In this document: positions 962-62,770 of the stretch, in pieces
How positions within the stretch are numbered: the stretch's first letter is position 1
Layout: each line of letters opens with the position of its first letter
Notes under the pieces: generated by a model
Told to the model about the DNA's origin: nothing
The model's database searches: none
What the model saw: the letters and a program-made list of their open reading frames with translations, nothing else
Source of the DNA: a bacterium
GTDB lineage: Bacteria > Chloroflexota > Anaerolineae > Aggregatilineales > Phototrophicaceae
DNA length: 64,000 nt
Direction of reading: 5' to 3'
Assembly (NCBI GenBank): GCA_033762735.1
Contig: JANRLJ010000218.1
Span: 8,943 to 72,942 of the forward strand
Program-made: the position numbers and the translations under genes

Positions 962-2308
962 TTGCCAGAATACCAACTGCCGTTATTCAGTGATTCCGCG
1001 TTCCCCTCCATTCCGTCCGAAACGCGCACCCTCGCCGCTATGGGAACCTTCAAGGACAGTAAAAGGGCACCCATACACAGTTGGTTCAAATACCCTGCTG
1101 GCTATTCCAACCAGTTTGTAGCAGACATTATGCAACGGTTCGATATTCTACCCGGACATTGGATATACGACCCTTTCAGCGGTACGGGCACGACGCTCGT
1201 TTGTGCTAAACAAGCCGGCATTAATGGTTATGGTGTTGAAGCGCATTCCTTCGTGCATTGGGTGGCGCAAGTCAAGTTATTCTGGGAATTTGACAAATCT
1301 ACCTTTGGGTCAACCGTTGATGATCTCCTTCAACAAGCACGGGACTTCGTTGGTTCAAAAGCCAGTTCGACCTCAACAGAAGGCGCGTTCCCCGAACTGA
1401 TTTACAAATGCTATCATCCACAAACCCTGATTGAACTTTATCTTTTACGGGAATTCATCTCCAAAGAGATCGTAGACGAACCCCTCAAAAACTGGTTCAA
1501 ACTGGCTCTGACCGATACTCTGCGCACTGCCGCCGCCGCCGGAACAGGCTGGCCCTATATCGCTCCCAACAAAAATACTGGGGACAAACCACCCAAGGAT
1601 GCACTTCGCCTGTTTGAAAAAACTGTGAAAAAGATGGCAGAGGATTTGTTTTACGCAGGGCATTCAAAGCACAAGTGTGAAATTCACAATATCCTGGGGG
1701 ACTCACGGCAGCAGCAATCCCTCTCCGAGCAGCAGATCGACCTGGGATTAACTTCTCCCCCCTACCTGAATAATTATGATTACGCTGATCGGACTCGTCT
1801 GGAAACGTACTTCTGGGGTATCGCTCAAAGCTGGAAAGACATAACCGATCAGTTCAGGAACAAACTTATGGTGGCTGCCACCACACAGATTGTGCGTAAA
1901 AATTTCGATGTTGAAAGCACACTATCTGAAGACGTTCGTGCCATTAGTCCCAACGTTTACACTGCTGTACAGACCGCCGTACTGGAGTTGTCGAAGCGCC
2001 GTCCTCAAAAAGGCGGGAAAAAAGACTATGATCTGATGGTCGCATTGTATGTCAACGACATTCTGGCGGTACTTAAGGAAGCCTATCGCACTTTACGACG
2101 GGGCGGGCATTTTTGTTTGGTCCTGGGAGACTCAGCACCTTATGGAGTTCATATCCCGACCGAAACCATTGTCGGAGAACTTGGGTTAGGGCTGGGGTTT
2201 TCTGAATTTACCTACGAGGAATTTCGTACTCGCGGCGGAAAATGGAAGGACAATCCACAACGCCACACCGTTCCCCTGCGCGAAGGTATGGTCACTCTTA
2301 AAAAGTAA
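962..2308 (+). CDS. N6-adenine/N4-cytosine DNA methyltransferase (motif I before motif IV order)
   Basis: TTG start with GGAGAT upstream. An AdoMet motif I (DPFSGTGTT) lies near the N-terminus and a catalytic motif IV (TSPPY) at about aa 265. The region is lower in GC than its flanks and a candidate restriction-endonuclease gene sits 37 nt downstream. Confidence 0.8.
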   Translation: MPEYQLPLFSDSAFPSIPSETRTLAAMGTFKDSKRAPIHSWFKYPAGYSNQFVADIMQRFDILPGHWIYDPFSGTGTTLVCAKQAGINGYGVEAHSFVHWVAQVKLFWEFDKSTFGSTVDDLLQQARDFVGSKASSTSTEGAFPELIYKCYHPQTLIELYLLREFISKEIVDEPLKNWFKLALTDTLRTAAAAGTGWPYIAPNKNTGDKPPKDALRLFEKTVKKMAEDLFYAGHSKHKCEIHNILGDSRQQQSLSEQQIDLGLTSPPYLNNYDYADRTRLETYFWGIAQSWKDITDQFRNKLMVAATTQIVRKNFDVESTLSEDVRAISPNVYTAVQTAVLELSKRRPQKGGKKDYDLMVALYVNDILAVLKEAYRTLRRGGHFCLVLGDSAPYGVHIPTETIVGELGLGLGFSEFTYEEFRTRGGKWKDNPQRHTVPLREGMVTLKK

Positions 2309-2345
2309 TGTTTACCCTGTAATAAGCGTGTAGAGTTGCACAAAA

Positions 2346-3323
2346 ATGCCTAAATCAAAACCAGTAAAAATTTACTCTTCAGACGACGGGCAGGCCGCCG
2401 CAAGCAAGTTTGGTCAGATGCTTGGCGATGCGTTTGCGTCGGTCGTGTACCAGCATATTCAGCGCTACTTGGCGCGTCAGTATCCGCAGTATGTCCTGTT
2501 GGAACCGGAAGATGGCCGAAAACTGGTAAAGTTCGACATGCTGGGAGGAACCTTACGGCAACTGGACAACGTTATCATCGAGGTAAATTCGATTGACCCT
2601 GTTGCCCTGTTTGAAACAAAGTGGTTGAAGGATGGTCGGCATCATAATGACAAAGGCGCGTGGATTCTTCAACTGAGAGAGATCAGCCGCCGCCACCCCA
2701 CAGTACGCGGTATGGTTGCAAACCTGGCCGGATACTGGACAGAGGGTGTCCGTGTGATGTTTGAGAGTGAAGGGCGCGTGAGGATGGTGCTGGTTGCAAC
2801 GGATGTTGAGGTTTACAGCACACTCCAACCTCACATCGACACTTATACCCAGGCCAATCATTTAGAAGCTCTTAAGCTTGATAACATCCGGGCAATTCGT
2901 AACAGGCTTCCCCGTGCCTGGGACTTAGCCAACTGTCTGGCAGCACTCAAACAAGCAGGCGTACTTGACCAAATTGCACAGGCGTGGCTGTCTTTTGAAA
3001 GAGATCAGGATGCGGGTGGCAATCCAATCGATGGCGCAGGTCTGATCGAGGCGGCTATTGATAAAGTTCTTAAACCACTTCCTGAAAATCCCCGTATTGT
3101 TGGTTTTGAGATTTCGCTTCAAGTGGAGTCGGGTAACGTAATTCATCAGGGATTTACAGACCTGGAAGAAGCCCTGGAATTCATGCAGCGCTATACCACC
3201 AATCCACAGGCAGTTCTCGAAACGATTACACCTAAAGAAAAGGCCTCCGCTTCCCTGGAGGAGGAAATTGCCTCCTTTGATGAAGCGAACAGCAAAGACT
3301 TATCGGACGAGCTTTCGGAATAA
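2346..3323 (+). CDS. Hypothetical protein; candidate type II restriction endonuclease partner of the upstream methyltransferase
   Basis: Co-oriented and 37 nt downstream of the MTase, in the same lower-GC block. I recognise no conserved family; the call rests on gene context only. Confidence 0.4.
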   Translation: MPKSKPVKIYSSDDGQAAASKFGQMLGDAFASVVYQHIQRYLARQYPQYVLLEPEDGRKLVKFDMLGGTLRQLDNVIIEVNSIDPVALFETKWLKDGRHHNDKGAWILQLREISRRHPTVRGMVANLAGYWTEGVRVMFESEGRVRMVLVATDVEVYSTLQPHIDTYTQANHLEALKLDNIRAIRNRLPRAWDLANCLAALKQAGVLDQIAQAWLSFERDQDAGGNPIDGAGLIEAAIDKVLKPLPENPRIVGFEISLQVESGNVIHQGFTDLEEALEFMQRYTTNPQAVLETITPKEKASASLEEEIASFDEANSKDLSDELSE

Positions 3324-3326
3324 GCA

Positions 3327-4172
3327 TCACTCGCGGGGCAGCGTGAAAATATCGTAGGTGTAGACTTCCTCGAAGCCGAATTTGCGATACAGCCCATAGC
3401 CCTGCACCCCTGCCGTCAGCACGATCATGCCGCTGTCGGTCGGCGCATCGGCCAGAATCCGCGCCAGAATCGCGCTGCCCAGTCCCCGCCTGCCTACATC
3501 AGGCAGCGTCGCCATCACATACACGCCGGGTATCCCCGCGCCCATCACCAGCGCCCCCATCGCAGCAGGGGCTTGCCCATACACGCCAGCCAGATACAGC
3601 CTTGCCGGGTCGCCGCGCAGCCAATCGTCGGCCATGTCTTCAAAATAGGTCGGTGCCGCGCCTTCAGGAAAGCGAAAGGCGATGCGCCGAATCGTGCTGG
3701 CCGCTTCCAGATCAGCACGGCATTCCGCCTGCCACACGCGCACGGTATCAGGGACGTTCATCGTCACAAGCGGCGCATGTAGCGGCACAGGTAGTGCGGC
3801 CACCATCGCGGGCAGGGGTGCGCGTCCGCTGATGAAGCCGTGCACGGGCAGCCGATCCTTTACCCTTGCATGGCGCGGGCTAAGCCACCAGTTCCATGCC
3901 GCGACTTCGCGCTCTGCGAAGAACGCTTTCACCTGCTCGATTTCGGCGTCGATCTCCGCGTCTGGTGTGTCAGCGGGGAAGTCACCGCCCAGCGCGAGAT
4001 TCAGCAGCGGCACGGGTATTCCGGTCGCGCTGGCGCGGATGCCCTTGCCCTGAAAACGCGCACCGTTCGGCGCACGGGAGGCCAGCCAGCTTTGCACCGC
4101 CAGGGTGTGCTCGTCAGCACGGCGGAGGATTTCGCCTGGGGAGAGTCCGGTAGCAGTGGTCAGGGTGTGCAT
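3327..4172 (-). CDS. GNAT family N-acetyltransferase
   Basis: Acetyl-CoA binding-type motif (VMATLPDVGRRGLGSAILARI) in the C-terminal half. The ORF is cleanly bounded. Confidence 0.7.
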   Translation of the reverse strand: MHTLTTATGLSPGEILRRADEHTLAVQSWLASRAPNGARFQGKGIRASATGIPVPLLNLALGGDFPADTPDAEIDAEIEQVKAFFAEREVAAWNWWLSPRHARVKDRLPVHGFISGRAPLPAMVAALPVPLHAPLVTMNVPDTVRVWQAECRADLEAASTIRRIAFRFPEGAAPTYFEDMADDWLRGDPARLYLAGVYGQAPAAMGALVMGAGIPGVYVMATLPDVGRRGLGSAILARILADAPTDSGMIVLTAGVQGYGLYRKFGFEEVYTYDIFTLPRE

Positions 4173-6057: not shown

Positions 6058-6273
6058 ACGGCGGGCTTAGCCTGATTTTGCTACAACTTATTTCAAGAAT
6101 GGTCATTGTACGGGCGACGCGCGCATCGCCCGTACCGCGATAGCTTCCAGAAACTCCGTAGGGATACAGCATCCCGTGTCCCTACACGCCGCGAAACATT
6201 GTTGAGAAAAGCTATCCTATTCCGTAGGCCAATCGTCCAGCAGGGTTCATATCCCTGTGCCATACTGAGCGGT

Positions 6274-9344: not shown

Positions 9345-9616
9345 TCGAGTACTGAGTGGTGAGTACCGAGTGATGAGGCATGAGTAGGGGCGCACCTATG
9401 TGTGCGCCCGTAAAGGGCAAAGAAAAAGATTTGACGCAAAGGTTCGCAAAGAAACGGGAGATGGTAGGGGCGCACCTATGTGTGCGCCCGTAAAGGACAA
9501 AGAAACGGGATTGATGTCGTAGGGACACGGCATGCCGTGTCCGGCACAACCCAACCTGAACGACCAACCGATTTGTTGCAACCTTCCCGTAGGGGCGACG
9601 TGCGCGTCGCCCGTAC
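9345..9616. repeat. Composite REP-like block: GAGTACCGAGT satellite plus four GTAGGG-stem-loop-CCCTAC palindromes and an AAGATTTGACGCAAAGGTTCGCAAAG module
   Basis: Palindromes seen directly at 9384-9412, 9464-9492, 9519-9542 and 9589-9616. The same modules recur at 14005-14880 and 16172-16340. Confidence 0.85.
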
Positions 9617-9673
9617 ACAAGCCAGCATCACAACCGCTGTTAACCAAATTTAAGGTGATTAAACGAACATAAC

Positions 9674-13993: not shown

Positions 13994-14004
13994 GGAAAAA
14001 GAAT

Positions 14005-14880
14005 AAATGGCGACGCAAAAACCCAAAGAAGAAGGGAAAAGAAAAAGATTTGACGCAAAGCCGCAGCGCCAATTTGCGCGAATGCAAAGGTTCGCAAAGA
14101 GAAGGATGGCTGTAGGGGCGCACCCGTGTGTGCGCCTGTAATGCAAGAGAAAAAGGCGACACAAAGCCGCAGCGCCAATTTGCGCGAACGCAAAGGTTCG
14201 CAAAGTGAAGGATGGCTGTAGGGGCGCACCCGTGTGTGCGCCCGTAACACAAGAGAAAAAGGCGACGCAAAGCCGCAGCGCCAATGTGCGCGAACGCAAA
14301 GGTTCGCAAAGAAGAAGAGAAAAGAAAAAGGCGACGCAAAGCCGCAGAGAACGCAAAGGTTCGCAAAGTGAAGGATGGCTGTAGGGGCGCACCCGTGTGT
14401 GCGCCCGTAACACAAGAGAAAAAGGCGACGCAAAGCCGCAGAGAACGCTAAGGTTCGCAAAGTGAAGGATGGCTGTAGGGGCGCACCCGTGTGTGCGCCT
14501 GTAATGCAAGAGAAAAAGGCGACGCAAAGCCGCAGCGCCAATTTGCGCGAACGCAAAGGTTCGCAAAGAAGAAGAGAAAAGAAAAAGGCGACGCAAAGCC
14601 GCAGAGAACGCTAAGGTTCGCAAAGAGAAGGATGGCTGTAGGGGCGCACCCGTGTGTGCGCCCGTAACACAAGAGAAAAAGGCGACGCAAAGCCGCAGCG
14701 CCAATGTGCGCGAACGCAAAGGTTCGCAAAAAGAAGAGAAAAGGCGACGCGAAGATGCAAAGGTTCGCAAAGAGAAGAATGGCTGTAGGGGCGCACCCGT
14801 GTGTGCGCCTGTAATGCAAGGACACGGCATGCCGTGTCCCTACAAAGGCAATAAAGGGCGACGCACCGCATCGCCCCTAC
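14005..14880. repeat. Complex tandem repeat array (non-CRISPR), roughly 95-165-bp units
   Basis: Six copies of GTAGGGGCGCACCCGTGTGTGCGCC(C/T)GTAA at 14113, 14218, 14381, 14475, 14638 and 14785. The sequence between copies is itself repeated (GCGACGCAAAGCCGCAG, CGCCAATTTGCGCGAACGCAAAGGTTCGCAAAG). Two further palindromes lie at 14819-14843 and 14864-14880. Confidence 0.9.
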
Positions 14881-14924
14881 GACTACGATTGTGCGCGACT
14901 TTTTCAAAGGCTGACGGCTGATCG

Positions 14925-14990
14925 CTGACAGCTAAAAGCTAAAAGCTAACAGCTAAAAGCTAACCGCTAATTGCTAACTGCTAACAACTG
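14925..14990. repeat. AGCTAA(A/C) hexa/heptamer microsatellite
   Basis: AGCTAAAAGCTAAAAGCTAACAGCTAAAAGCTAACCGCTAATTGCTAACTGCTAAC lies directly upstream of the vWA gene. Related GCTAAC/GCGATTAGC runs occur at 27255-27300, 42915-42945 and 43030-43065. Confidence 0.8.
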
Positions 14991-15003: not shown

Positions 15004-16170
15004 ATGACCCACGACACTCCCGACGAACGCCTGCGCCGCTGGCGACTGATCCTCGGCGGCGAAAACGACGGCACCGAATGCAAGCTGGGCCAGCGCGACA
15101 GGGACATTGACCAGGCGTTAGGCGCCCTCTATGGGGGAGGGGATGGCAGCGTGATGGGAAAACCCGCCGGGCGCGAAGGTTCGCTGGGTGCGTCAGCGCC
15201 GAATGTCGCCCGCTGGTTGGGCGATATCCGCACCTACTTCCCGGCGTCGGTCGTGCGCGTGATGCAAAAGGACGCGCTGGAACGGCTGAACCTCAAGCAA
15301 ATGCTGCTGGAGCCGGAAATGCTGGAAGCCGTCGAGCCGGATGTACATCTGGTGGCGACGCTGCTCTCGCTCAACCGCATCATGCCCGACCGCACGCGAG
15401 ACACCGCCCGGCAGGTTGTGCGCCGCGTGGTCGATCAACTGGAACGCCGTTTGCGCCGCAAAACCGAACAGGCCGTGCTGGGCAGCCTGAACCGCGCCGC
15501 CCGCAACAACCGCCGCCCTCGCCATAACGAGATCGACTGGAACAAGACCATCCGCGCCAATCTGAAGCATTACCAACCGGAATATAAGACCATTATCCCC
15601 GAACGGCGCTTCGGCTATGGACGCAAGCAGCAGCGGCTGCGCGACATTGTGCTGTGCGTCGATCAGAGCGGGTCGATGGGAACGTCAGTGGTGTATTCGA
15701 GCATCTTCGGGGCGGTGCTGGCTTCGCTCAAGGCCGTCAGCACGCAGATGGTGGTGTTCGATACAGCGGTGGTCGATCTGACTGCCGAACTGCGCGACCC
15801 GGTGGAACTGCTGTTCGGGACTCAGCTCGGCGGCGGGACGGACATCAACCGCGCACTCGCCTACTGTCAGGGCATTATCCGCCGCCCATCGCAGACGATT
15901 CTGGTGCTCATCAGCGATCTGTACGAAGGCGGCGATGCGGAGTCGATGCTGCGGCGGGTCGGGGCGCTGGTCGGTTCTGGTGTGCAGATGGTGGCGCTGC
16001 TGGCGCTTAATGATGACGGTGCACCAGTCTATGACAAGAAGCACGCGGCAACCTTCGCGGCGATGGGCGTTCCTGCCTTCGCCTGCACGCCTGACCTGTT
16101 CCCTGATCTGATGGCGGCGGCCATCGAACGGCGCGACCTCTCGCAGTGGGCGGCGGCCAATTTGGAGTAA
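15004..16170 (+). CDS. von Willebrand factor A (vWA) domain protein
   Basis: MIDAS DxSxS (VDQSGSMG), with downstream T (GGGTDIN) and D (LISDLYEGG) residues. It is the fifth gene of the cluster and is separated from gene 4 by the repeat array. Confidence 0.8.
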   Translation: MTHDTPDERLRRWRLILGGENDGTECKLGQRDRDIDQALGALYGGGDGSVMGKPAGREGSLGASAPNVARWLGDIRTYFPASVVRVMQKDALERLNLKQMLLEPEMLEAVEPDVHLVATLLSLNRIMPDRTRDTARQVVRRVVDQLERRLRRKTEQAVLGSLNRAARNNRRPRHNEIDWNKTIRANLKHYQPEYKTIIPERRFGYGRKQQRLRDIVLCVDQSGSMGTSVVYSSIFGAVLASLKAVSTQMVVFDTAVVDLTAELRDPVELLFGTQLGGGTDINRALAYCQGIIRRPSQTILVLISDLYEGGDAESMLRRVGALVGSGVQMVALLALNDDGAPVYDKKHAATFAAMGVPAFACTPDLFPDLMAAAIERRDLSQWAAANLE

Positions 16171-16171
16171 C

Positions 16172-16340
16172 CGTGTTTGGTCACGGGCGCACACGTGGGT
16201 GCGCCCCTACAGCATCCATTCTCTTTGCGAACCTTTGCACCTCTACGCCTGTGCGTCGCCGTTTTCTTATCCCTTATGCTTTGCGAACCTTTGCATCTTT
16301 GCGCCTTTGCGTCAAATCTTTTAACGCTTTTTTGCCGTTT
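16172..16340. repeat. Inverted copy of the 14005-14880 repeat modules
   Basis: TACGGGCGCACACGTGGGTGCGCCCCTAC, CTTTGCGAACCTTTGC (x2) and CTTTGCGTCAAATCTTTT are reverse complements of the upstream array modules. Confidence 0.85.
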
Positions 16341-16343
16341 TCC

Positions 16344-18602
16344 CTACGGCGTATCCTCTCCCGCCAGCAGCGACCCGTGCTCGAACAGCATCTTTTCCAG
16401 AAAGGTCGCCTGTTCCTCCGCCGTCATCGGGCGCGGACGGGCGAAGTCCTCAATCACGCCCGTGAACAGATCAACCGTCAGCAGTCGCCCGTCATAGAGA
16501 TAGAGCGTGTCCATGAAGAACTCACGGTTTTCCAGTTCCGGCTGATCGAAATACAGGTTGCCCAGCCCATGATGCAGGAAGGACTCGCGCCCGTCCACGC
16601 TGGCATGGAACTCGAACACCTGTGGGCGGTGCGCCTGTGTCCCCAGCACCACATCCGCGCCGATCTCCCCCAGCGTACGGAAATGGGTGAGCTGCCGTTC
16701 AATCGGATTATAGCGGTCATATTCGGCGTACTGCACCAGCACCACCACCACATCGACCTGTTGGCGCAGCGCGGGGATGGCCTCGCGCAGCCAGCCATCG
16801 ATCACGCAGTAGGCCGCGCCGGGACGTTCCTCACCGAGAAAATCACTGGCAAGGGCAAATTCCGGCCCATTCCAGTTGCAGGCGAACAGGCCGACTCGTG
16901 TACCGTTGTGCTCCACGATGAGCGGTGCGCGGGCTTCGGTCACGCTTTCCCCGCCGCCGACCGTCTGCATCCCGGCCTCGCGATACATCTCCAGACTGCG
17001 GCGGTAGACGTTAAAGCCGTAGTCATTGTTGTGGTTGCCCGTCAGTTCGAGGATGTCCACGCCGAGCAGCGTGAGCAGGTCGAAATGCGCGTCCTTGCTG
17101 CACAGCCCGCCTAAAACGGGTTCGTCGGCTTCGGGGCAGCGCGGCGCAAACGACACTTCATTGCTGACATGGAAAAAGTCTGCCGTGCTGACATAGGGCA
17201 GAATGCCTTCCGCCGCCCATTCGACTCCGTTATTGTCCAGCGCGGTCAGGGTGTTACGGGCTAAGGCCGTCACGCCGGAAAAGGTCATGCGCGTCAGCAG
17301 CGCAGGGTCGAAATTGGGCGACTCGGACTCGAAGGCGAAGGGATACGTGGGCATGTCCAGCGGGTGCAGATCGCCCTCTGAGGTCTGAATCCGCAGCACC
17401 CGATAGCGCGGCGTGAGCGCATCAAAGGCCAGCAGCGTATAGCGGTCGGGATTCTCCCACAGGAACGCCTGCAACTGATCCGGCGGGAGCACCCGGTTAA
17501 ACGGATCGACCGGGACGCCGTGTTCGATTAAGGCCTCGGCGGTGGCGGAATCCAGCACCAGCGCGGGATCGACCTCGCCATTCAGAATACGGTTGAGGCG
17601 GTCGAGATCGAGCCGGGTTTGTGTGCTGCGAAAGGCGGTGGCGGGGAGAAAGAGAGACACGCTTTCGGACAAGCCCTCACCCCCCTGGCGAACTTGTTCG
17701 CCCCCACTCTCCCTTATAGAGAGGGGGAGAGCACTCGCGGTGGCTTCTGAAGTAGCTTCTGCTTGCGTTGTGATGGTTTCCTGTGAAGGAGCCTCCCACC
17801 CGACGCTGTAGAAGGCGAGGTATTCGGCCACATGCGACGACCAGTAGGCGTTGTTGTGTTCGCCTTCGGGATAGACGATGTAGTCATGCGGCAGGCCGCG
17901 CGTGGTCAGATTGTCGTGCATCAGATCGAAGCCGTACTGCGCATAATCGTCGCGCCCGCGATCCAGCCAGATGCGCAGGGATTCAATGCCGGGTGCATTC
18001 AGCGCCAGATCAAGCGGGTTGAAGTCTGGCGGGGCGTTCTGTGGGTCGAAAAAGGCACTGTGTCCGCCGACGGTGCTGAACAGCGCGGGATTGCGGAAGG
18101 CGATGTGGAACGCCCAGAATCCCCCACGCGAGATGCCGCCGATAGCACGGGTGGCCCGGTCAGTGGAGACGCGGTGATTCGCTTCCACGTCGGGCAGCAG
18201 TTCCGTCAGGAAGACGTTCTCCCAGGAGAGGCGGTCAAAGCGGTTCTCGTTCGCCATCCACGCGCCATAGGGCATGACGACCACGAACGGCGGCAGCACA
18301 CCCGCTTCGATTCCGGCGTCCATCGCCTGCGGCAGTCCCAGATCCACCCACAGGCGATTGGTCGAGTTCGAGCCGTGCATCAGATACAGCACCGGATAGG
18401 TCGCGTCGGTCTGCGCATAGCAGGGAGGCAGATAGACGGTATACACCAGTTCCAGATCAACCAGTTCGCTGGAATAGGTGCGGTCGATCACGCGCCCTTC
18501 TGTTGACGTGCATCTCTGCGCCTGGGCGGGAACAGGCCGCAGGACGAGCGCGACGAGCAGGCTGAGGGCGAAAACAAACGGCATCCATGAGAGTCGGCGC
18601 AT
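16344..18602 (-). CDS. Secreted fusion protein: esterase-family alpha/beta hydrolase plus CapA-like (poly-gamma-glutamate capsule biosynthesis / metallophosphatase) domain
   Basis: Signal peptide, then esterase features (LYLMHGSNS, GGISRGG), then a CapA-like C-terminal half. The interdomain linker is encoded by a MITE-like sequence at 17641-17760. Confidence 0.65.
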   Translation of the reverse strand: MRRLSWMPFVFALSLLVALVLRPVPAQAQRCTSTEGRVIDRTYSSELVDLELVYTVYLPPCYAQTDATYPVLYLMHGSNSTNRLWVDLGLPQAMDAGIEAGVLPPFVVVMPYGAWMANENRFDRLSWENVFLTELLPDVEANHRVSTDRATRAIGGISRGGFWAFHIAFRNPALFSTVGGHSAFFDPQNAPPDFNPLDLALNAPGIESLRIWLDRGRDDYAQYGFDLMHDNLTTRGLPHDYIVYPEGEHNNAYWSSHVAEYLAFYSVGWEAPSQETITTQAEATSEATASALPLSIRESGGEQVRQGGEGLSESVSLFLPATAFRSTQTRLDLDRLNRILNGEVDPALVLDSATAEALIEHGVPVDPFNRVLPPDQLQAFLWENPDRYTLLAFDALTPRYRVLRIQTSEGDLHPLDMPTYPFAFESESPNFDPALLTRMTFSGVTALARNTLTALDNNGVEWAAEGILPYVSTADFFHVSNEVSFAPRCPEADEPVLGGLCSKDAHFDLLTLLGVDILELTGNHNNDYGFNVYRRSLEMYREAGMQTVGGGESVTEARAPLIVEHNGTRVGLFACNWNGPEFALASDFLGEERPGAAYCVIDGWLREAIPALRQQVDVVVVLVQYAEYDRYNPIERQLTHFRTLGEIGADVVLGTQAHRPQVFEFHASVDGRESFLHHGLGNLYFDQPELENREFFMDTLYLYDGRLLTVDLFTGVIEDFARPRPMTAEEQATFLEKMLFEHGSLLAGEDTP

Positions 18603-25505: not shown

Positions 25506-25652
25506 GCCCTCACCCTATAAGCGCAGCGACACCCTCTGCAAGAGGCGCTCTCCCTCAGGGAGAGGGACTTGCTCTCGCAGGACGTTCTTTCTCCCCCTCT
25601 CCCTAAGCGCAGCGACCGAAGCGGTCGGGAGAGGGGGCTGGGGGGTGAGGGC
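25506..25652. mobile_element. MITE-like element (family 2) bounded by GCCCTCACCC / GGGTGAGGGC inverted termini
   Basis: The termini and an internal CTCCCTCAGGGAGAGGG palindrome are seen directly. Related copies lie at 17641-17760, 40219-40297, 43725-43824, 46655-46746, 53411-53497, 58564-58660 and 62587-62634. Confidence 0.7.
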
Positions 25653-25775
25653 TAGTGCGTAACATCAGTTCGTAACGCCATTATAGCGATTTTTATCGCT
25701 GGTCAGGAATCAGATGCAAAAGAGGCGCACATACCCGTGCGCCTCGATGCTTTCTATTGGTGCTGAAGTCGGTAC

Positions 25776-27146: not shown

Positions 27147-27698
27147 CGTTTCTCTCCTTAGTTGTGCAAACACACAATCGTATTTCTCCCCCGGCCTACC
27201 CTCCGCCGGGAGCATGCCACATAAACACCGCCGAAGCGATGGGAGGGCTAGAAAGAAGTTATCAATTGTTAGTTAATAGTTGTTAGCGATTAGCTTTTTG
27301 CTTTTTGCTGTCAGCGATCAGCTTTTTTATAGGCACGACCTCATGCCTTTTGCAACTGCCCAATCCTGACTCAACATTGAATAATCGTTTCATCATTGGT
27401 AGGGACACGGCATGCCGTGTCCTGATGATTATGGTGTGCTGCGGTGGGTGATACGAACTCAAGCTGACACCTTCTACCGCTATGTCCTGTTTGCAGACGA
27501 AACCCTTACGGTATTCAGCCCCTAAAACATCGTCTCTCTAAAGTTGCCCACCCCCACTACACCTTTACCAATCCAGGTCACTCCTTAAGTACACCCGAAT
27601 TGAAGGCGGAGGATTGTGCGGACACGGCACGCCGTGTCCCTACGAAACCATCACTCGGTACTCACGACTCGGCACTGCACTCATCACTCGGTACTTCC

Positions 27699-40218: not shown

Positions 40219-40297
40219 GCCCTCATCCCCCCGCCCCCTTCTCCCTCAGGGAGAAGGGGGAGAGAAACACTTCAGCACCTCTTGCGGGGATGAGGGC
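40219..40297. mobile_element. Small MITE-like element with perfect 12-bp inverted termini GCCCTCATCCCC / GGGGATGAGGGC
   Basis: It sits between convergent genes and contains the CCCTTCTCCCTCAGGGAGAAGGGGGAGAG internal palindrome. Confidence 0.75.
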
Positions 40298-42541: not shown

Positions 42542-42913
42542 TTGGCTAAGTCACGCACTGAACAACTGGTTGAACGTCTGCGCGATCTTCAGGCCAGCTC
42601 CGGCGACGTCGAAGCCGCAGCCGTCGTCAGCGTTGACGGGCTGAGTATGGCATCGTCGCTGCCGTCGAACATTGAAGAAGATCGCGTGAGCGCCATGTCC
42701 GCCGCGATGGTGTCCCTGGGCGAGCGTATTTCGTCCGAACTGGGGCGCGGCCTGATGGAACAGGTCATGGTCAAGGGCGAAAACGGCTATGTGATCCTGA
42801 CCTCGGTCGGGGAAGAAGCCGTGCTCACCGTGCTGGCGCGCAAGGATGCCAAGCTGGGGTTGATCTTCCTGGACGTAAACCGCACGGTCGATGCCCTGTC
42901 GCAGATTATTTAG
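42542..42913 (+). CDS. Roadblock/LC7 domain protein
   Basis: About 120 aa with the roadblock pattern (VEAAAVVSVDGLSMAS...GYVILTSVG). Confidence 0.7.
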   Translation: MAKSRTEQLVERLRDLQASSGDVEAAAVVSVDGLSMASSLPSNIEEDRVSAMSAAMVSLGERISSELGRGLMEQVMVKGENGYVILTSVGEEAVLTVLARKDAKLGLIFLDVNRTVDALSQII

Positions 42914-43067
42914 CCGTTAGCGATTAGCGATCAGCCATTCGCTTTTTGATAAAACCTATTTTTGGGCTAGAGAATGTTGTGTTGACATTTGTACTCAAAA
43001 GCGGAGTACATAAGCATCAATGTCAACACGGGCTAATCGCTAAAAGCTAACCGCTGAGAGCTAACTC

Positions 43068-43715: not shown

Positions 43716-43855
43716 AGAAGGTCCCGCCCTCACCCCATCAGCGAAGCCACGCCTTTTCTCCCTTATGGTGAGGGAAGGCATTCAGACCGGGGTTTCCCCT
43801 CTTGTCATCCGTAAAGGGTGAGGGTAAACATCAGTAACCAAAAGGTGGATGGAAC

Positions 43856-44760: not shown

Positions 44761-44815
44761 TACAACTTATTTCAAAAATGCGTATTGTAGGGGCGATGTG
44801 CGCGTCGCCCCTACC
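44761..44815. repeat. REP-like element paralogous to 6081-6135 (TACAACTTATTTCAA...GTAGGGGCGATGTGCGCGTCGCCCCTAC)
   Basis: A shared 15-mer TACAACTTATTTCAA plus the palindrome. The second copy at 6081-6135 lies upstream of the TolB-like gene. Confidence 0.8.
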
Positions 44816-45251
44816 GAAAATCCGAATTTTGAAATGGCTTCGACTTTTCTGAATTCATCAACCACAGGGGTGGCGCACCGCGTCGCCCCTTGACGCAGGG
44901 CAAACGCATCAAATTTCACAGATACGCCAAGAAAGTTCAATACCAACACCAACCACGAAGGCGCAAAGAACACAAAGATTTTCCCTCGTCTTCGTGTCCT
45001 TCGTGCCTTTGTGGTTCAAAAAAGCGCTTTAGCGTGTGGTCGTGTTTTGATGCAATCGCCCTGCCCGTTGACCGTTTGCTTTCCTGCGCTGATGCCATCT
45101 CTCCTGTAAAATCACTGCCCCCGCAGCTTTTGCAAATCCACCAACCATCCTCAAACCAAACGTTCGTAAAATTTTCGTTTGCATTTCCAGGGAAAGTAGG
45201 CTTGAATTATCATTGATATAATTTCATCGCCGCATTCTGACAGAGGCCACT

Positions 45252-46652: not shown

Positions 46653-46751
46653 AACCCTCAATCCCCGCCCCCTTCTCCCTCAGCGAGAAGGGGAGAGCGC
46701 CGGTGTAAGCCCCTCTCCATGAGGGAGAGGGGTTTGGGGTGAGGGCATCCC

Positions 46752-53080: not shown

Positions 53081-53489
53081 GATGATGGTACTCCTCAACT
53101 CGGTTGACTGCGTTCATGAGTGAGGACGACCCACTGTAAAATTTTGTTTCCACAATCCGCCTTCCGGCAGGGCAAATCCGTCGAAGGTCGGAGATAACGC
53201 CGACTCAGGGCGAAGGGGGAGAAAAGCGAGTCATAGGTAGCCACCCAACCCTATCCACCACACACCCTAACCACATCCTTACGAAACCTCAACACAAGGG
53301 GAATTTACCCATCCTCCGTTCTGCCCGAAAATAAACATAGGTTTAATCGATATATCGATGAGAGACATAACGTTGATGTTAAAACGTTTTCAAACGAAAA
53401 AACTTTCATCCCCCCGCCTCTCTTCTCACTCAGGACGAGGGGGTAGAGCCTTATTCTTAAGCCCCTCTCCTTTGGGAGAGGGGTTTGGG

Positions 53490-56400
53490 GTGAGGGCAAA
53501 ACTGCTGTGGCTGGTCGGGCTGGCACTGCTGCTGATGCCTGCCATCAATGCGCAGACGGCGCAGGCTGCTTATACTGCCCGCATTCAGGGCACGGTATTG
53601 GATGCTGCCAGCGGTGCGCCCATCGAAAACGCCGAAATCAGCGTGGCGGGGGGCTATCGCACCTTCAGCGCACCGGATGGCACGTTCGCATTTGAGGCTG
53701 TCGCGCTGACGGAAGCGGTCGGCGTGGTGACGGTCACGGTCTCGGCGGAAAGCTATGGCACATACACCCTTCAGGATACGCCGATTCTGGGTAATGATAC
53801 GATGCTGCTCACGGTGGAACTGACCGCCGAGGCGCAGTTCTATGACGCGGGCGGGTTGCAGTCAATCTCGCAGGTGAGCGACCCCACCGCGCTCGACGAA
53901 CCGCAGCTTTATGATGAGTTCACCGCCCAGGCCGATTCCGCAGTGGGCGGGAATGAGCCGTTCTTCTGGTCGCACAGCGTCATCCCGCCCACCATTCGCG
54001 TCGCGATTTCAGGCCGCACCCGATGCGGTGAGCGCAACAGCAGCGGCGTCTTTGTCTATTATCCGGTGCAGCGCGTGGATACGCTGGACTTCAAGCAGTA
54101 CACGAAGAACGTGCTGCCGTCGGAATGGATCAATTCATGGAATGGGGCATCGCTGCGCGCCGGGGCGGTGGCCGTGAAGATGTACGCCTGGTGGAAGATC
54201 AACATCGGCCCGCGCACCCGCGACGGCTTTACGTTTGATGTATGGGGCGACACCTGCGACCAGATGTACATTCCGGGGCGCGAGTTCGCCTCCACCAACG
54301 CCGCCATTGAGGACACCTGGAACTACATCATGCGCTTCAACGGGCAGGTGGGGCGCATCCACTACACTGCGACGGATGAGGTCTGTCAGGCCAATAACCT
54401 TTCACCCTGTATGTCACAGTGGGGGTCGAAAGCGCTGGGCGACCAGGGCTACGACTGGGGCGCGATTCTACGTCATTACTACGGCAGCAGCGTGGAGATT
54501 CTATTCGTCGGTGGGCCGCCCGCCGCCAACACCAACCTCGTGCGCAACAGCAATTTCAGCGGCGGCACGACCGAATGGACGACCAGCGGCGACATGCCCA
54601 CACCCTCCACCGTCAACGGGGCGCTTTCCGTCTCGCGGGGGAGCGGGGGCGGCGTGGTCTATCAGCCGCTCGGCTATTCAGCGCAGTTCGGGTGGCCGTT
54701 CAACATTCAGCTTGATCTGAGCAACCAGAGCAGCGGGGTCAAAACTGTGACCGTGCGGCTGCGGGCGACCGACTCCGAGGCGGGCGCGATTGCCTGCACC
54801 TTCCCCCTGCCCGCCAGCACCGGAATGCAGACCTATCTGATGCAGGGCGTGGCCGGGGCGACATGGTCAGGGCTGCGCTTCGAGGTGGTGCTGGACACCC
54901 CCGACAGCACCATCTGGATTGACAACGTGTATGCCGCCTACAGCCCGGCGCTGGGCGTGACACAGACGCAGTGCATCCGTCCCGCGCCGCTCAATGATCT
55001 GTTCATCAATCGGACGGCGCTCCCGGCGGAAGGCACGACCACCAGCTATGCCCTCAACGGCGCCTCCGTCAGCCAGGACGATCCCGCCCTGACCTGCCTG
55101 GGCAGCCCGCGTGACTATGCCGACTCGGTCTGGTTCCAGTACACGCCCGGTGCCAGCGGAACGGTGCAGTTCAACACGGCGGGCAGCAACTTTGACGGGG
55201 TACTGGCGGTCTTTACCGGGAACAGCCCCGGCAGCCTGACGCAGATCGGCTGTAACGACAATTTCAGCAGTCAGACCCGCACGGCCTATCTCTCGCTCAA
55301 TCTCAGCGGCGGCACGACCTATACGGTGCTGCTGGCGCGGCGGGGCGCGGCGGCTTCCTCCCTGACGCTGATGACGCTCAACGTGAATCGGCTGGGGCTG
55401 CTGGCGCCCGGTGGCAGCGTCACCGCCAACAATGGCAACCCGACTTATATCTGGCCGAACGTCAGCGCCGATTACTATTACCTGTATGTGGCCGTTTATG
55501 GCGGCGCACAGGTCATCAACGAAGTGCTGGCCTCCAACACCACGCTGTGCAGCGGTGCCCTGTGCCAGCTTGACGCGACAACCCTGCGCGATCAGTATCG
55601 GCTCAACGTCGGCTCGTATGTGGTCTATATGAACACCTGGAAGAACGGTACGCCCGGCGCGGTCGTGGGGCCGTTCGTGTTCACGGTGCAGGCCAACCCG
55701 CCCGGTCTGGTCACGATGGGCGCGGTCACGGGGACGGATACCTCCCGCCCGACCTTCAACTGGACGCTGAACGATGCCGCTGCGACCGCAACACGCTTCT
55801 GGCTGTATCTCGCGCCGAGCGCCAATCTGGGTGCGCCCGTCTTCCATCAGGAATTCAGCCGCGCCCAGGCCTGCGGCAGCAGCAGCGGGACGACCTGCGG
55901 CGTACCTTCCCCGGTCGATCTGCCTAACGGTGTGGGCTACAGCGCCTTCGTGGGTGCCTGCGGTGTGGGTGGATGCGCCACCACAGGCGGGCCGTATAAC
56001 AATGGCTACGCTGGCCCGGCCACGTTTGCGGTCGGTGTCCCGCAGCCCAATCTGCCCGCCGATTTCCGCGTCGAAGTCAATCAGGGACGCCCCACGCTGA
56101 TCTGGGACGATGACCCCAAAGCCGTGCGCTACAGCGTCGCCATCAGCACTGAGGCATGGCGCTGGCTGTACTTCCAGCCACACCCGCGTACCGAAGCGCT
56201 TTGCAGCGGCGGGGAGTGCCGCCTGACACCCGATCTGAACGTCACCAACGGACGCTATCACTATTACGTGAATGCTGAGGGTGTCGGTGGTGCATCGACA
56301 GGGGGACCGTACAACAACGGCTATGCGGCGGTGGAATTCGTCGAAATCAACTTCGCCGCGCCCACCGCACCGGGGACCTTTATCGCGCCCGTTGGGAACA

Positions 56401-57842
56401 TCACCAGCGCGAACCCGACCTTTGAATGGCCGACGCAGCCGGGCGCGACCGGGTATCAACTGTGGGTGGGGACGGTCACGCCGAGCTTCCAGACGCGCTA
56501 TCTGCAATGGCAGGTGGCGGGCGGCGCGATCTGCACCCCGCATCCGGGCATCTGCCGCGTCAGGCCGACGCTCAACCTGCCGCCGGGTGAATATGCCTGG
56601 AATCTGCTGGCGGCGGGGCCGGGCGGCAGCAGCAGCTGGGGCAGCGGCATGGCCTTCACCATCAGCGGCGGCGCACCCGGCACGTTAACGCTCACTGCAC
56701 CGACAGGCACAATCAGCGTGTTCAACCCTGAATTTACGTGGGTGGATCAGCCCAGCGCCGAGCGCTATCACCTGTGGCTGGGCAACCCCGCCGTGACCGA
56801 GACGCTGCACGACCAGTGGTACAACCGGGCGGATGTGTGCACGTCGGGTGTCTGCCGTGTGATCGTGCCCGCGCTCTCGCTGACCAACCGCGCCTACTTA
56901 TGGAACGTCCGCGCCTCCAATGCGGGCGGAACAGGCGCATGGACTCCGAACGGTCAGTCCTTCACGGTCACTGTGCCGCTGCCCGCCGCGCCGCAAATGC
57001 TCGCCCCAGCGGACGATGCCGTGATCCATGCCACCAACCGCCCCACGTTCAGTTGGACGACCGTATCGAACAGCCAGGGCTACTATCTGCAAGTGCTGGA
57101 CAGCACCAATGTCCCGGTTTACGAGCGCATTCACTACGCCACTGAGGCTGTATGCAGCGCGGAAAGCTGCACCGTGCAGGTCGATCAGCCGATTACCTAC
57201 GGGCTGTACCGCTGGCGTGTGGTGCCGGGCAACGTCAACGGCGCAGGGACGAGCACACCCTGGCGCGATTTCATGGCGCTGTCGGTCAACACACAGCCTA
57301 TGGCGGCGCAGATGGGGGATGCGCGGCTGCTGCGCGAAGGGAACTGGACAGCGACCACCGATGCCGAGGCGTTCGGCGGCGATCTGCTCCAAAACCAGTC
57401 TACAGATGCGGGAATGCCATCGGTGACGCTGAGCTTCATTGGAACACAGGTGGATGTGGTCTATCTGGCCGCGCCGGGACTTGGCTCCTTTACGGTGGAA
57501 ATTGACGGGGTGGCGCTGCAAACGGTAGACACCAACGCGCCGGAAATCCGCTACGGGCAGATTACGACCGTGCGCGGGCTGGCGCAGGGCACACATACCG
57601 TCCGCATCATTGCGCAGGGACAGATCACGCTGGATGCGGTGGTGGTCGATGGCGAGATTCTGACGAGCATCCCTGTCACGCCGACCGCGCCGCCAGCGGT
57701 AGAAGCCACACCAGAAGCAACCCCGGAGCCGACGCCGCTGCCCGTTGAAATCACACCGGAAGCCACGCCGCAGGCTGCGCCGACGGAGCCGCCAGCGGTG
57801 GAAACCACGCCGGAAGCGACCGCCGAATCTTTCGAGGGTTGA
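53490..57842 (+). CDS. Giant secreted multidomain protein with SpoIID/LytB domain, carboxypeptidase-regulatory-like N-domain and multiple Ig/FN3-like repeats
   Basis: The GTG at 53490 is preceded by GGGAGAGGGG and followed by a canonical signal peptide (RAKLLWLVGLALLLMPAINAQTAQA). The SpoIID/LytB region lies around aa 230-380 of the ORF frame (WGDTCDQMY, GYDWGAILRHYYG). The alternative ATG at 53376 would place 40 aa before the signal peptide. Confidence 0.6.
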   Translation: MRAKLLWLVGLALLLMPAINAQTAQAAYTARIQGTVLDAASGAPIENAEISVAGGYRTFSAPDGTFAFEAVALTEAVGVVTVTVSAESYGTYTLQDTPILGNDTMLLTVELTAEAQFYDAGGLQSISQVSDPTALDEPQLYDEFTAQADSAVGGNEPFFWSHSVIPPTIRVAISGRTRCGERNSSGVFVYYPVQRVDTLDFKQYTKNVLPSEWINSWNGASLRAGAVAVKMYAWWKINIGPRTRDGFTFDVWGDTCDQMYIPGREFASTNAAIEDTWNYIMRFNGQVGRIHYTATDEVCQANNLSPCMSQWGSKALGDQGYDWGAILRHYYGSSVEILFVGGPPAANTNLVRNSNFSGGTTEWTTSGDMPTPSTVNGALSVSRGSGGGVVYQPLGYSAQFGWPFNIQLDLSNQSSGVKTVTVRLRATDSEAGAIACTFPLPASTGMQTYLMQGVAGATWSGLRFEVVLDTPDSTIWIDNVYAAYSPALGVTQTQCIRPAPLNDLFINRTALPAEGTTTSYALNGASVSQDDPALTCLGSPRDYADSVWFQYTPGASGTVQFNTAGSNFDGVLAVFTGNSPGSLTQIGCNDNFSSQTRTAYLSLNLSGGTTYTVLLARRGAAASSLTLMTLNVNRLGLLAPGGSVTANNGNPTYIWPNVSADYYYLYVAVYGGAQVINEVLASNTTLCSGALCQLDATTLRDQYRLNVGSYVVYMNTWKNGTPGAVVGPFVFTVQANPPGLVTMGAVTGTDTSRPTFNWTLNDAAATATRFWLYLAPSANLGAPVFHQEFSRAQACGSSSGTTCGVPSPVDLPNGVGYSAFVGACGVGGCATTGGPYNNGYAGPATFAVGVPQPNLPADFRVEVNQGRPTLIWDDDPKAVRYSVAISTEAWRWLYFQPHPRTEALCSGGECRLTPDLNVTNGRYHYYVNAEGVGGASTGGPYNNGYAAVEFVEINFAAPTAPGTFIAPVGNITSANPTFEWPTQPGATGYQLWVGTVTPSFQTRYLQWQVAGGAICTPHPGICRVRPTLNLPPGEYAWNLLAAGPGGSSSWGSGMAFTISGGAPGTLTLTAPTGTISVFNPEFTWVDQPSAERYHLWLGNPAVTETLHDQWYNRADVCTSGVCRVIVPALSLTNRAYLWNVRASNAGGTGAWTPNGQSFTVTVPLPAAPQMLAPADDAVIHATNRPTFSWTTVSNSQGYYLQVLDSTNVPVYERIHYATEAVCSAESCTVQVDQPITYGLYRWRVVPGNVNGAGTSTPWRDFMALSVNTQPMAAQMGDARLLREGNWTATTDAEAFGGDLLQNQSTDAGMPSVTLSFIGTQVDVVYLAAPGLGSFTVEIDGVALQTVDTNAPEIRYGQITTVRGLAQGTHTVRIIAQGQITLDAVVVDGEILTSIPVTPTAPPAVEATPEATPEPTPLPVEITPEATPQAAPTEPPAVETTPEATAESFEG

Positions 57843-58476: not shown

Positions 58477-58870
58477 GGGAAGTCTCGGACAGCGTTTCCT
58501 ACCTCTGAATTGCATTGTCCGGTACTTGTAGCAGGTTCATAAACGATCATAACAGATCATTCTGCCCTCACCCGAAATCCCGCTGCAAGAGGGACTTAAT
58601 CTCGCAGGGCAGACCTTCTCCCCCTTGTCCAGCACCAGCGTTCGGGAGAGAGGATGCGGGCGTCTGCCTAATGGAAAAACCAACATAAGTACGAATAATT
58701 CGGTGCACGGGCGAGGCGCGCCTCGCCCCTACAGCAACGCCGGAAATGAACAGGCGGTCTTTTGTCGGATGAACCAACAAGTCCTATTCTGCTGAAACAG
58801 CTTTTGCCCAATCCGAGAAAAGGCCGGGTCTGAAAGTGCTTCTCGGTACTTTCGACTCGGTACTCGATAC

Positions 58871-60195: not shown

Positions 60196-61239
60196 TTACT
60201 CCGCGCCTCGTGCGCCGACTACATAGCGCTGCACCACCCGAATCAGTTCTTCGGTCTGGATTGGCTTTTCAAGAATATCCTTGACGCCCTTAAGCACCAG
60301 CATCTCGCGGGTGCGGCGGCCATCCCATTTCAGACTGGTGATAATCACCACCGGAACGCTGGTCTGATAGCGCTGGAGCAGATCGAGCAGGTACATACCG
60401 TCCTGCCCGGTCTTCTGGTCGTCCGGGCCGAGCATCATGTCCAGCGTAATCAGTTCATAACGGTGCTTGCGGATAAGGACGCTGGCTTCGTTCAGGGTGC
60501 TGGCCGTGTGCACCTCAAGCCCCTGCCCGGAAAGAATATCGCGCAGCACTTCCTGCATGGCTTCCATGTCTTCAATTGCCAGCGCCAGCGGTTTCACGTG
60601 GGTGTGTAAGGATGAGGTCGTAATACGGTTTTCGGAAGTTTCTTCTTCCCGTCCCCCCTTCATCTGCGCCGCGTCCCCTCGCGCCGCCTCCCCTCGCGCC
60701 GCGTCTGTCCGTGCCGCGTCCCCTCGCGCCGCGTCTGTCCGTGCCGAATCTATACGCGCCGCATCCACTCGCGCCACTTCGTGCACATTCAGCCCTGGCC
60801 GGGGCGCGGTGTCTTCCAGCGGGTCGCGCTGCTGTTCACCACGCCGCACCACCGCCTGAAACAGGGCGCGGTTCAGCTCCTTAAAGGCCTGTTCCATCCG
60901 GTCGCGGAAGTCGATGTAATGCAGATGATCGAGAAAAGCCGGGAGGGCGGTATAGCGCATCATCAGGGGGATGACCGTGCAGTTGTATTCCTGGGCGCGC
61001 TCGACTTCGTACTGCACCCAGCTTGAGCGCACCGACTCCGGCGTGAGCAGCACCAGCATAGCGACAGATTGGGTGAGCGCCCGGTCAATCGACTTCTTCC
61101 ATTCATCGCCGCCCTTGAGTTCGGTGAAGTCGATCCAGGTGCGAAAGCCCATTTCCTCGACCCGTTGTGAGAAAAGATTCGCGGTGAGACGATCTTCGTG
61201 GCTGTAACTGATAAAAACACCCACTTCCTGTCGCTGCAT
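60196..61239 (-). CDS. TIR domain protein fused via repeat linker to C-terminal response-regulator receiver domain
   Basis: N-terminal TIR signature (VFISYSHEDR...SSWVQYEVERA), the linker DAARIDSARTDAARGDAARTDAARGEAARGDAA, and a receiver with acidic pocket and phosphoacceptor (LAIEDMEA...ELITLDMML...K in LEKP). Confidence 0.7.
   Translation of the reverse strand: MQRQEVGVFISYSHEDRLTANLFSQRVEEMGFRTWIDFTELKGGDEWKKSIDRALTQSVAMLVLLTPESVRSSWVQYEVERAQEYNCTVIPLMMRYTALPAFLDHLHYIDFRDRMEQAFKELNRALFQAVVRRGEQQRDPLEDTAPRPGLNVHEVARVDAARIDSARTDAARGDAARTDAARGEAARGDAAQMKGGREEETSENRITTSSLHTHVKPLALAIEDMEAMQEVLRDILSGQGLEVHTASTLNEASVLIRKHRYELITLDMMLGPDDQKTGQDGMYLLDLLQRYQTSVPVVIITSLKWDGRRTREMLVLKGVKDILEKPIQTEELIRVVQRYVVGARGAE
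60664..60775. repeat. 15-bp tandem repeat (about 7 units) encoding the (D/E)AAR(G/T/I) linker of the TIR-receiver protein
   Basis: GCGCCGCGTCCCCTC / GCGCCGCGTCTGTCC / GTGCCGCGTCCCCTC units are seen directly. Confidence 0.85.
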
Positions 61240-62479: not shown

Positions 62480-62770
62480 GGGTAAATCGGTAGGACTTAC
62501 ACGGCTGCAACTTTTCTCCCGTAACCTGACGAATTTGTACACGCTCGTCTTTCAACGAAGCGCACCTCCTGGCAGCGGGGAACCAGACTCTCCCCCTTCG
62601 CCCTGAGGGAGAAGGGAGTCGGGGGTTGAGGGCGATGCCGAAGTTCTAAAAGTCTTTTTACAACCCGACGGTTCCCCGGCGCATCACCGCCCTTCGCCTT
62701 GCGCTTGTAGGCGAATCCGGGGATTTGGCTTACAATGGAAAGACTTAACGTGACAGCGAAAGGGATCTGT

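Follow-up and report, generated by a model that had tools for sequence, protein, structure and literature searches.

The 64,000-nucleotide (nt) stretch analysed here, referred to below as the window, covers positions 8,943 to 72,942 of contig JANRLJ010000218.1 (assembly GCA_033762735.1), from a metagenome-assembled genome (MAG) of the Anaerolineae (Chloroflexota). On its reverse strand lies a gene for a secreted protein in which an esterase domain is followed by a CapA-like domain. Within the linker that joins the two domains, the gene contains a copy of a short repeat whose seven other copies in the window are intergenic or lie at the start of a gene, as judged by the Pfam matches on the flanking open reading frames (ORFs). 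Judged by its sequence, this in-frame segment is a copy of an already described family, known as BoxC, PIT or the G/C-rich triplex motif (TM). The coordinates of all of these features are collected in Table 1.

The protein begins with a hydrophobic leader resembling a signal peptide. An NCBI MAG protein with the name ‘CapA family protein’ has the same sequence (100% identity), and all of the residues that are invariant in an 88-sequence alignment are retained. The linker is bordered by the nearly invariant Trp269 and by a conserved LFLPA motif, in which Pro320 is invariant in the homologue alignments. Its length ranges from 14 to 62 amino acids (aa; median 35) among 91 homologues, between which it is not alignable; in the window protein it measures 47 aa. 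AlphaFold2, run with an 88-sequence alignment, gave a model of the window protein with a mean predicted local distance difference test score (pLDDT) of 90.9 and values above 90 for both domains. In the whole protein the score falls below 50 in one stretch only, aa 275-306 (the 10-residue averages across aa 271-310 are 47, 38, 37 and 48), and the first strand of the CapA-side domain begins at aa 315, whereas the repeat codes for aa 291-310. Since the pLDDT is low over aa 275-306 and the next strand starts at aa 315, the repeat is translated into a disordered tether. The linker is best explained as almost free of constraint on length or sequence.

The blocks of the coding copy follow one another in the correct order on the sense strand, CCCCCTCTC / GAGAG(T)GGGGG / GGGGGGTGAGGGC (the mirror relation of block 3 was read by eye), and the copy is in frame and free of stop codons within ORF 16344..18602; a TGA is present in one of the three frames of the TM G-strand. 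An earlier reading of the window made from its letters alone (hereafter the sequence-only reading) had described a repeat translated in frame, without stops, exactly between the esterase and CapA-like domains, and codon mapping together with the Pfam matches bears this out.

The assignment to the repeat family was made in several ways. With k-mer sets built from the seven intergenic copies we scored the 60-nt stretches of the 64 kb, and 17672-17732 came out as the highest-scoring stretch outside the training set. A rule-based TM detector (a pyrimidine arm no shorter than 7 nt is followed, after a loop of 3-10 nt, by a complementary arm in which a single mismatch is allowed, and GGG.?TGAGG must come within 35 nt) matched the coding copy (17675-17730) and five of the seven intergenic copies, with no match in 100 simulated 64-kb sequences (6.4 Mb). 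Over its full length the coding copy can be aligned with the copy between genes at 40219-40264, with identity at 40 of 46 positions and one 13-nt insertion, AACAAGTTCGCCA; the linker DNA does align with the intergenic copies, a comparison on which the sequence-only reading had staked its claim beforehand. In addition, block 3 and the right end of another copy (25640-25653) agree exactly over 14 nt, and the window contains four occurrences of the 12-mer GCCCTCAYCCCC, where 0.04 would be expected. A BLAST search of the segment against the window returns matches of 10-20 nt only, because the repeat family is modular.

The element had initially been placed at 17641-17760, which is too wide. The copy comprises a core at 17673-17732 and neither flank: the supposed terminal motif at 17641-17656 (gcggggagaaagagag) is the antisense of CTC TTT CTC CCC GCC, the LFLPA codons conserved in homologues, and 17733-17760 shows no similarity to the repeat family in a BLAST search against the window. 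The copy thus delimited has loops of 7 nt (loop 1) and 15 nt (loop 2), the latter with an extra 7-bp palindrome that arises from the 13-nt insertion relative to the intergenic copies. The palindrome, GGCGAAC..GTTCGCC, has no second copy in the window, and the variant that bears it, GGGGCGAACAAGTTCGCCAGGGG, has no exact match in the metagenome collection. We considered the 13-nt palindromic insertion as a secondary event that restored the frame; the arithmetic of 46 + 13 nt does not decide this. The Rfam scan of the whole window returned no family at gathering score.

Identity of the repeat family and its copies in the window

Holder et al. (2015; PMC4666352) define the TM by the pattern CCCTCKCCC-loop-GGGAGAGGG-(TTA|CCG)-GGGTGAGGG and report it from over 260 genomes of bacteria. 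According to the same paper, TMs form a stable triplex in vitro, are tied to local genomic instability in Escherichia coli and have no link to mobile elements there, and all copies of E. coli K-12 are intergenic (23/23). Descriptions of BoxC date from the 1990s and that of PIT, by Maher’s group, from 2000, as cited in PMC4666352, in whose summary of earlier work by that group PIT elements were without effect in vivo. The word ‘Chloroflex’ is absent from the main text of Holder et al. (PMC4666352), supplements not included.

The window family has the same architecture as the TM: a CCCTCTCCC-type arm, a complementary GGGAGAGGG-type arm and a GGGTGAGGG-type third block. The canonical window copies at 46710-46746 and 53462-53497 share 29-31 of 36 positions with published TMECO sequences, the intergenic copies show 27-33 matches to TMECO over 34-46 aligned positions, and the coding copy shows 29 of 41 after removal of its 13-nt insertion. 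As in E. coli, the copies are dispersed and numerous and some form inverted pairs. As for the TM, there is no known mobility mechanism or associated transposase; no transposase search was made here. The loops of the TM measure 1-6 nt in the ITxF definition, and about 3-5 and 2-3 nt in TMECO. The copies at 46710-46746 and 53462-53497 fall within this short-loop definition, while the coding copy, with its loops of 7 and 15 nt, falls outside it. Moreover, unlike the E. coli K-12 TMs, which are always intergenic, the coding copy is translated.

The 64 kb contain seven intergenic sites in addition to the coding copy, and between genes the family is abundant, at about one copy per 10 kb. The intergenic copies listed in the sequence-only reading are all correct, and one further copy, at 53405-53497, had been missed. 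The label ‘MITE-like’ that it gave to them is not the best one. The coding copy has a single GCCCTCACCCC block and no terminal inverted repeat pair; a terminal block occurs at both ends only in the composite copies 25506-25652 and 40219-40297, for which an inverted pair of TMs is the better reading. Inspected by eye, which is weak evidence, the flanks of the seven intergenic copies and a filled/empty site in an orthologue described below (P0032) showed no target-site duplication. BoxC/PIT/TM therefore fits better than MITE.

One of the window copies touches a second gene. The TM at 53462-53497 lies at the 5′ end of ORF 53358..57842 (+), which encodes 1494 aa with the domains CarboxypepD_reg and SpoIID. 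Inside TM block 3 (GGGGTGAGGGC), a GTG in frame at 53490 begins a textbook signal peptide, (M)RAKLLWLVGLALLLMPAINAQTAQA, and the purine arm GGGAGAGGGG just 5′ of this GTG resembles a Shine–Dalgarno site. This TM may supply the start codon and the ribosome-binding site of the 1494-aa gene.

Age of the fusion and recurrence of the repeat in the linker

The homologue survey covered 119 other listed proteins, 48-65% identical to the window protein. Both domains are present, at similar length, in 118 of them, the exception (P0023) being a truncated 563-aa product from a 3-kb contig; the orthologue alignment that the sequence-only reading had proposed as a way to recognize two separate genes thus shows the esterase and CapA domains fused. 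A scan of GTDB with one genome per species confirmed at least 547 related loci, nearly all labelled Anaerolineae, Aggregatilineales, Phototrophicaceae or Chloroflexota. In the best 80 of these, which were kept, the match spans both domains except in L075 and L084, which are cut by a contig end. The detector finds the repeat missing from nearly all orthologous loci. In the alignment, the 20 aa derived from it form a private insertion that is conserved in no relative, and the position of the window copy is without a TM in the two nearest relatives, P0002 (64%) and P0023 (65%). The esterase–CapA fusion is therefore much older than the repeat, since nearly all of the fused relatives are without it.

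The linkers of 91 homologues were screened for TM-type peptides and the DNA was then read. A TM was found in the same linker in three further orthologue lineages, P0002/L007, P0032 and P0068 (Table 1). Compared with relatives that are 84-85% identical and lack a TM (P0069 = L085 and P0065 = L020), the DNA of P0032 has a clean gain of 36-42 nt; this pair of filled and empty sites shows that P0032 gained its TM recently and in its own lineage. For P0068, the closest relative with DNA available (P0064 = L023, 75% identical) has no TM, and the linkers of the 66-75% relatives (L023 and L026) are too diverged from that of P0068 to delimit an insertion; the same length of P0068 and P0076 may be a coincidence. 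The linker of P0059 contains the peptide EFGEGIG, at the protein level only. Over 1.45 Mb of orthologous loci (86 loci), the detector gave 12 matches, which within the orthologous gene lie in the linker only. Anchoring by tblastn placed 32 of the 86 linkers, and the TM counts rest on the whole-locus scan instead.

Two observations on the homologues should be mentioned here. The linker of P0002 (L001, gene 2105-4168) ends in QAGTGLS-LFLPA, compared with QGGEGLSESVS-LFLPA in the window (17655-17690), and the DNA of QAGTGLS and QGGEGLS matches at about 12 of 21 nt by eye. From these letters, QAGTGLS may be the remnant of a decayed TM of the window type, common to the two nearest relatives, or a coincidence. 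Furthermore, single blocks are mimicked, as in SGVTALTR via GCCCTCACCCG (TALTR; L004 5086 and L005 6370) and in W-A-G-E-G via GGGTGAGGGC (L001 3304); because conserved CapA-domain motifs mimic TM block 3 by chance, one block alone is no evidence of a repeat.

We also scanned metagenomes with the coding-type TM pattern. At least 120 contigs matched; 80 were kept and carry 90 TMs, five of which are in frame with Pfam domains on both sides (Table 1). In the DnaE of L119, alignment shows about 43 extra residues around the TM relative to positions 464-489 of E. coli DnaE. Overall, six in-frame TMs are in the sense orientation and three in the antisense orientation. TMs in coding DNA are uncommon, yet they are not confined to the esterase–CapA gene.

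Table 1. The esterase–CapA gene, its in-frame TM and related TM copies (window coordinates unless a locus is named)
Feature	Location	Strand	Description	Basis
Host gene	16344..18602	-	intact gene, 752-aa secreted esterase + CapA-like (PGA_cap) protein	ORF call + Pfam
Esterase domain	17817..18443	-	PF00756, aa 54-262	Pfam, E = 9e-22
PGA_cap / CapA domain	16542..17288	-	PF09587, aa 439-687	Pfam, E = 8e-30
Interdomain linker	17655..17795	-	hypervariable, predicted disordered, aa 270-316, between W269 and LFLPA	length survey; pLDDT
LFLPA codons	17640..17654	-	conserved, aa 317-321, outside the element	homologue alignment, codon mapping
In-frame BoxC/TM copy	17673..17732	-	encodes aa 291-310, ALPLSIRESGGEQVRQGGEG	k-mer, detector, alignment, codon mapping
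Gene-sense layout of the in-frame copy	17673..17732	-	CTCTCCCCCTCTC-TATAAGG-GAGAGTGGGGG-[CGAACAAGTTCGCCA]-GGGGGGTGAGGGC	
TM block 1	17719..17731	-	pyrimidine arm, sense CTCTCCCCCTCTC	
TM block 2	17701..17711	-	purine arm GAGAGTGGGGG, pairs with block 1 save one bulged T	
Palindrome	17687..17702	.	perfect, GGCGAAC-TT-GTTCGCC, within loop 2, unique in the window	
TM block 3	17673..17685	-	GGGGGGTGAGGGC, mirror of block 2, family signature, encodes GGEG	
Family copy	25506..25652	.	composite, intergenic, inverted block 3 at either end	
Family copy	40219..40297	.	intergenic pair of inverted TMs with one common hairpin; closest relative of the coding copy (40/46)	
Family copy	43726..43826	.	degenerate, intergenic, between V4R gene and response-regulator/GGDEF gene	
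Family copy	46655..46746	.	intergenic, between convergent genes; includes a canonical TM (46710-46746) that shares 31/36 positions with an E. coli TMECO	
Family copy	53405..53497	+	at the 5′ end of the 1494-aa ORF	
Family copy	58564..58660	.	degenerate or composite, intergenic	
Family copy	62587..62633	+	intergenic TM between convergent genes	
TM in orthologous linker	P0002/L007		64% identical; TCCCTCACCCCCGACCCCTCTCCCGAAGGCGAGGGG, opposite orientation, directly after the esterase domain (other linker end)	
TM in orthologous linker	P0032		51%; CCCCCCTCTC-TGCAAGCG-GAGAGGGGG-CAA-GGGGGTGAGG, orientation and frame as in the window, 32 nt before VFLPA	
TM in orthologous linker	P0068		51%; CCCCCCTCTC-CACCAGTA-GAGAGGGG-CA-GGGGGTGAGG, orientation as in the window, frame different (…GQGVR…), 6 nt before LFLPA	
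TM in ABC exporter	L118:2256-4331	+	between ABC_membrane and ABC_tran (linker of transmembrane and nucleotide-binding domains, TMD-NBD)	
TM in helicase	L122:3571-5871	-	between DEAD and Helicase_C	
TM in DnaE	L119:427-4029	-	inside the DNA_pol3_alpha region	
TM in TPR protein	L116		between TPR units	
TM in ThuA-DUF7133 protein	L088		inside DUF7133	

Origin and fate of the linker copy

We consider it very probable that the TM copy is a tolerated, effectively neutral passenger in the disordered linker of an older esterase + CapA protein, and that it did not bring about the fusion and has not been domesticated. Intergenic TMs, selfish or passively spreading, would occasionally land in coding DNA, where the survival of a copy would need a kept frame, no stop codon and a site that tolerates extra residues. 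At this locus, a TM would have entered the hypervariable disordered linker of a far older protein in a frame without stops, its net length leaving the reading frame intact; its translation would have contributed about 20 residues rich in Gly, Glu, Ser and Arg, taking the linker from about 27 to 47 aa. The copy would persist because the linker is almost without length or sequence constraint. We infer both that an insertion was the event behind the window copy and that this copy is neutral.

Such a passenger has counterparts in other repeat families. Rickettsia palindromic elements (RPEs; Ogata et al., 2000, as summarised in PMC10969869 and PMC3184786) are selfish repeats found in frame in protein genes. 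The window copy resembles them as a multi-copy palindromic repeat lying in frame, in a conserved and apparently functional gene, at a site where the fold tolerates it. In both cases different genes were struck independently, and here different orthologues too. The two differ in that RPEs are about 100-150 bp long, AT-rich and restricted to Rickettsia, whereas TMs are about 35-60 bp long, GC-rich and spread across phyla; they have no sequence relationship, and unlike in the RPE case one linker was struck repeatedly by TMs in separate lineages. By analogy, the window copy may be read as comparable to the RPEs of Rickettsia proteins, from a different repeat family. Intragenic ERIC, BOX/RUP/SPRITE and cyanobacterial MITEs with ORFs fused to host genes are also on record (Delihas 2007/2011 and Croucher 2011, as cited in PMC3184786 and PMC10969869). 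With these elements the TM has in common that a small intergenic repeat sometimes lies in frame within protein genes or at their ends. Yet the elements named have terminal inverted repeats and often target-site duplications, whereas the coding copy has one terminal block and no duplication was seen.

Several points weigh against a merely tolerated passenger. Four TMs are found in one linker (about 170 orthologues), against about 0.05-0.15 expected by a rough estimate from the local background density, and target preference or selection may contribute beyond passive tolerance. The esterase–CapA linker is either exceptionally permissive or a preferred target; the excess is an observation and no proof of targeting. 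The peptide QGGE(G/V)LSES is common to the window protein and to P0032, in partly different codons, and the LSE codons of P0032 lie inside the inserted stretch; this sharing may be a coincidence or reflect a poorly defined element tail. The coding copy itself is atypical, with a 15-nt loop 2 whose palindrome is seen nowhere else. Finally, the databases searched contain no relative closer than about 64% that would show the empty site of the window copy or its exact ends.

The first of these points could indicate that TM/BoxC elements are preferentially captured or retained at interdomain linkers, the esterase–CapA linker being a recurrent target (four lineages, with three TMs just upstream of the pyrimidine-rich LFLPA codons). 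We regard this as unlikely. On this view, an ‘intergenic’ repeat that spans phyla would generally supply new peptides to linkers and loops, or would place structured sites of pausing or instability at the boundaries of domains, and would reach even essential genes such as dnaE. A target preference for polypyrimidine tracts such as the LFLPA codons was considered and set aside as speculation only, as no consistent tract of this kind is found at the flanks of the intergenic copies.

A role at the level of the nucleic acid appears improbable. The structured, GC-rich motif at the domain boundary would slow the ribosome or the polymerase, giving a pause for co-translational folding, or would act as an instability hot spot that varies the linker length. 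TM triplexes are indeed stable in vitro and associated with local instability in E. coli (PMC4666352), in-frame TMs are often found at domain boundaries and the esterase–CapA linker is unusually variable in length. On the other hand, the segment is predicted to fold no more favourably than shuffled sequence, either as RNA or as DNA (z = -1.2 and -1.1), a result that is silent on triplex formation; PIT had no effect in vivo in the work of Maher’s group, as far as it is summarised in PMC4666352; the in-frame TMs show no orientation bias, and most orthologues are without a TM.

About as improbable, in our view, is exaptation, in which the domesticated repeat would now serve, under selection, as a functional part of a flexible linker, as the sequence-only reading had proposed as one of two options. 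The repeat is translated within an intact gene, its Gly/Glu/Ser-rich product looks like a linker, and peptides derived from TMs are found in this linker in four lineages. However, the proposal finds no support in the homologues, all of which have a linker (14-62 aa) without needing the repeat, and P0032 relatives at 84-85% identity manage without a TM. The frame, orientation and position of the TM peptides vary between lineages, and the window copy shows no demonstrable conservation, its 20 aa being conserved in no homologue and lying in the low-pLDDT stretch.

That the segment is a chance or compositional look-alike, a stretch coding for Gly, Glu, Pro and Ser that merely resembles the repeat, is very improbable. 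The individual BLAST matches are short (10-20 nt) and the gene family does mimic repeat blocks by chance, through the LFLPA codons or GCCCTCACCCG, which encodes TALTR in L004. These facts do not account for the end-to-end alignment with a genuine copy (40/46), for three blocks in the correct order with complementary arms (detector null of 0 in 6.4 Mb), for the top k-mer score of the 64 kb or for the 14-nt exact match to another copy. The other option of the sequence-only reading, that insertion of the element fused separate esterase and CapA genes, suggested by its place exactly between the two domains, is refuted and can be dismissed almost entirely, because the fusion long predates the element: at least 547 loci across the Anaerolineae have the fused architecture, nearly all without the element, and W269 and the LFLPA junction motif are conserved on either side of the linker.

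For the esterase–CapA gene itself, the consequence of carrying a neutral TM passenger is probably nil. The interest of the case lies in the repeat. BoxC/PIT/TM is among the most widespread of short bacterial repeats, has no accepted function and is strictly intergenic in the best-studied genome; translated TMs add a family to the short list of selfish repeats that donate peptide sequence to proteins. New here are the recurrence of TMs in one linker, in three other lineages, and the in-frame TMs in unrelated genes. Two cautions follow for annotation: low-complexity ‘GEG / PSP / GRG’ linker stretches can be repeat-derived, and domain fusions should not be credited to such elements without a check of the orthologues.

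Other repeats in the window

GTAG-tagged REP elements (Di Nocera et al., 2013; PMC3733652) form a second abundant class of intergenic palindromes in the window, for example GTAGGGACACGGCATGCCGTGTCC. They are a separate sequence family, family 1 of the sequence-only reading, and not the linker element. At least three sub-families of GTAG-type REP palindromes lie between genes (GTAGGGGCGCACC.., GTAGGGACACGGCATGCCGTGTCC and GTAGGGGCGACGYGCGCRTCGCCCCTAC), at sites that include 6162-6188, 9384-9618, 27392-27650, 44786-44819, 51872-51909 and 58679-58734. A composite tandem array at 13999-14861, with periods of 94, 106, 163 and 257 nt, consists of a GTAG-tagged REP hairpin (GTAGGGGCGCACCCGTGTGTGCGCCC) and GCAAAGGTTCGCAAAG modules. 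Inverted copies of this array are found at 16180-16311, directly downstream of the stop codon of the esterase–CapA gene, and the two sets flank the gene 15004..16170.

Simple tandem repeats are also present. The heptamer GCTAACA is repeated nine times at 14924-14986, directly 5′ of the ATG at 15004, and similar arrays occur at 27277-27322 and 42909-43066, one of them inverted. In ORF 60196..61239 (-), an array at 60666-60775 has a 15-nt period with super-periods of 30 and 45 nt (GCGCCGCGTCCCCTC) and would encode a pentapeptide repeat if the predicted ORF is real. Finally, three direct repeats of 45-54 nt at 57679-57826, near the C-terminus of the 1494-aa ORF, resemble a Pro/Glu/Thr/Ala-rich repeat region.

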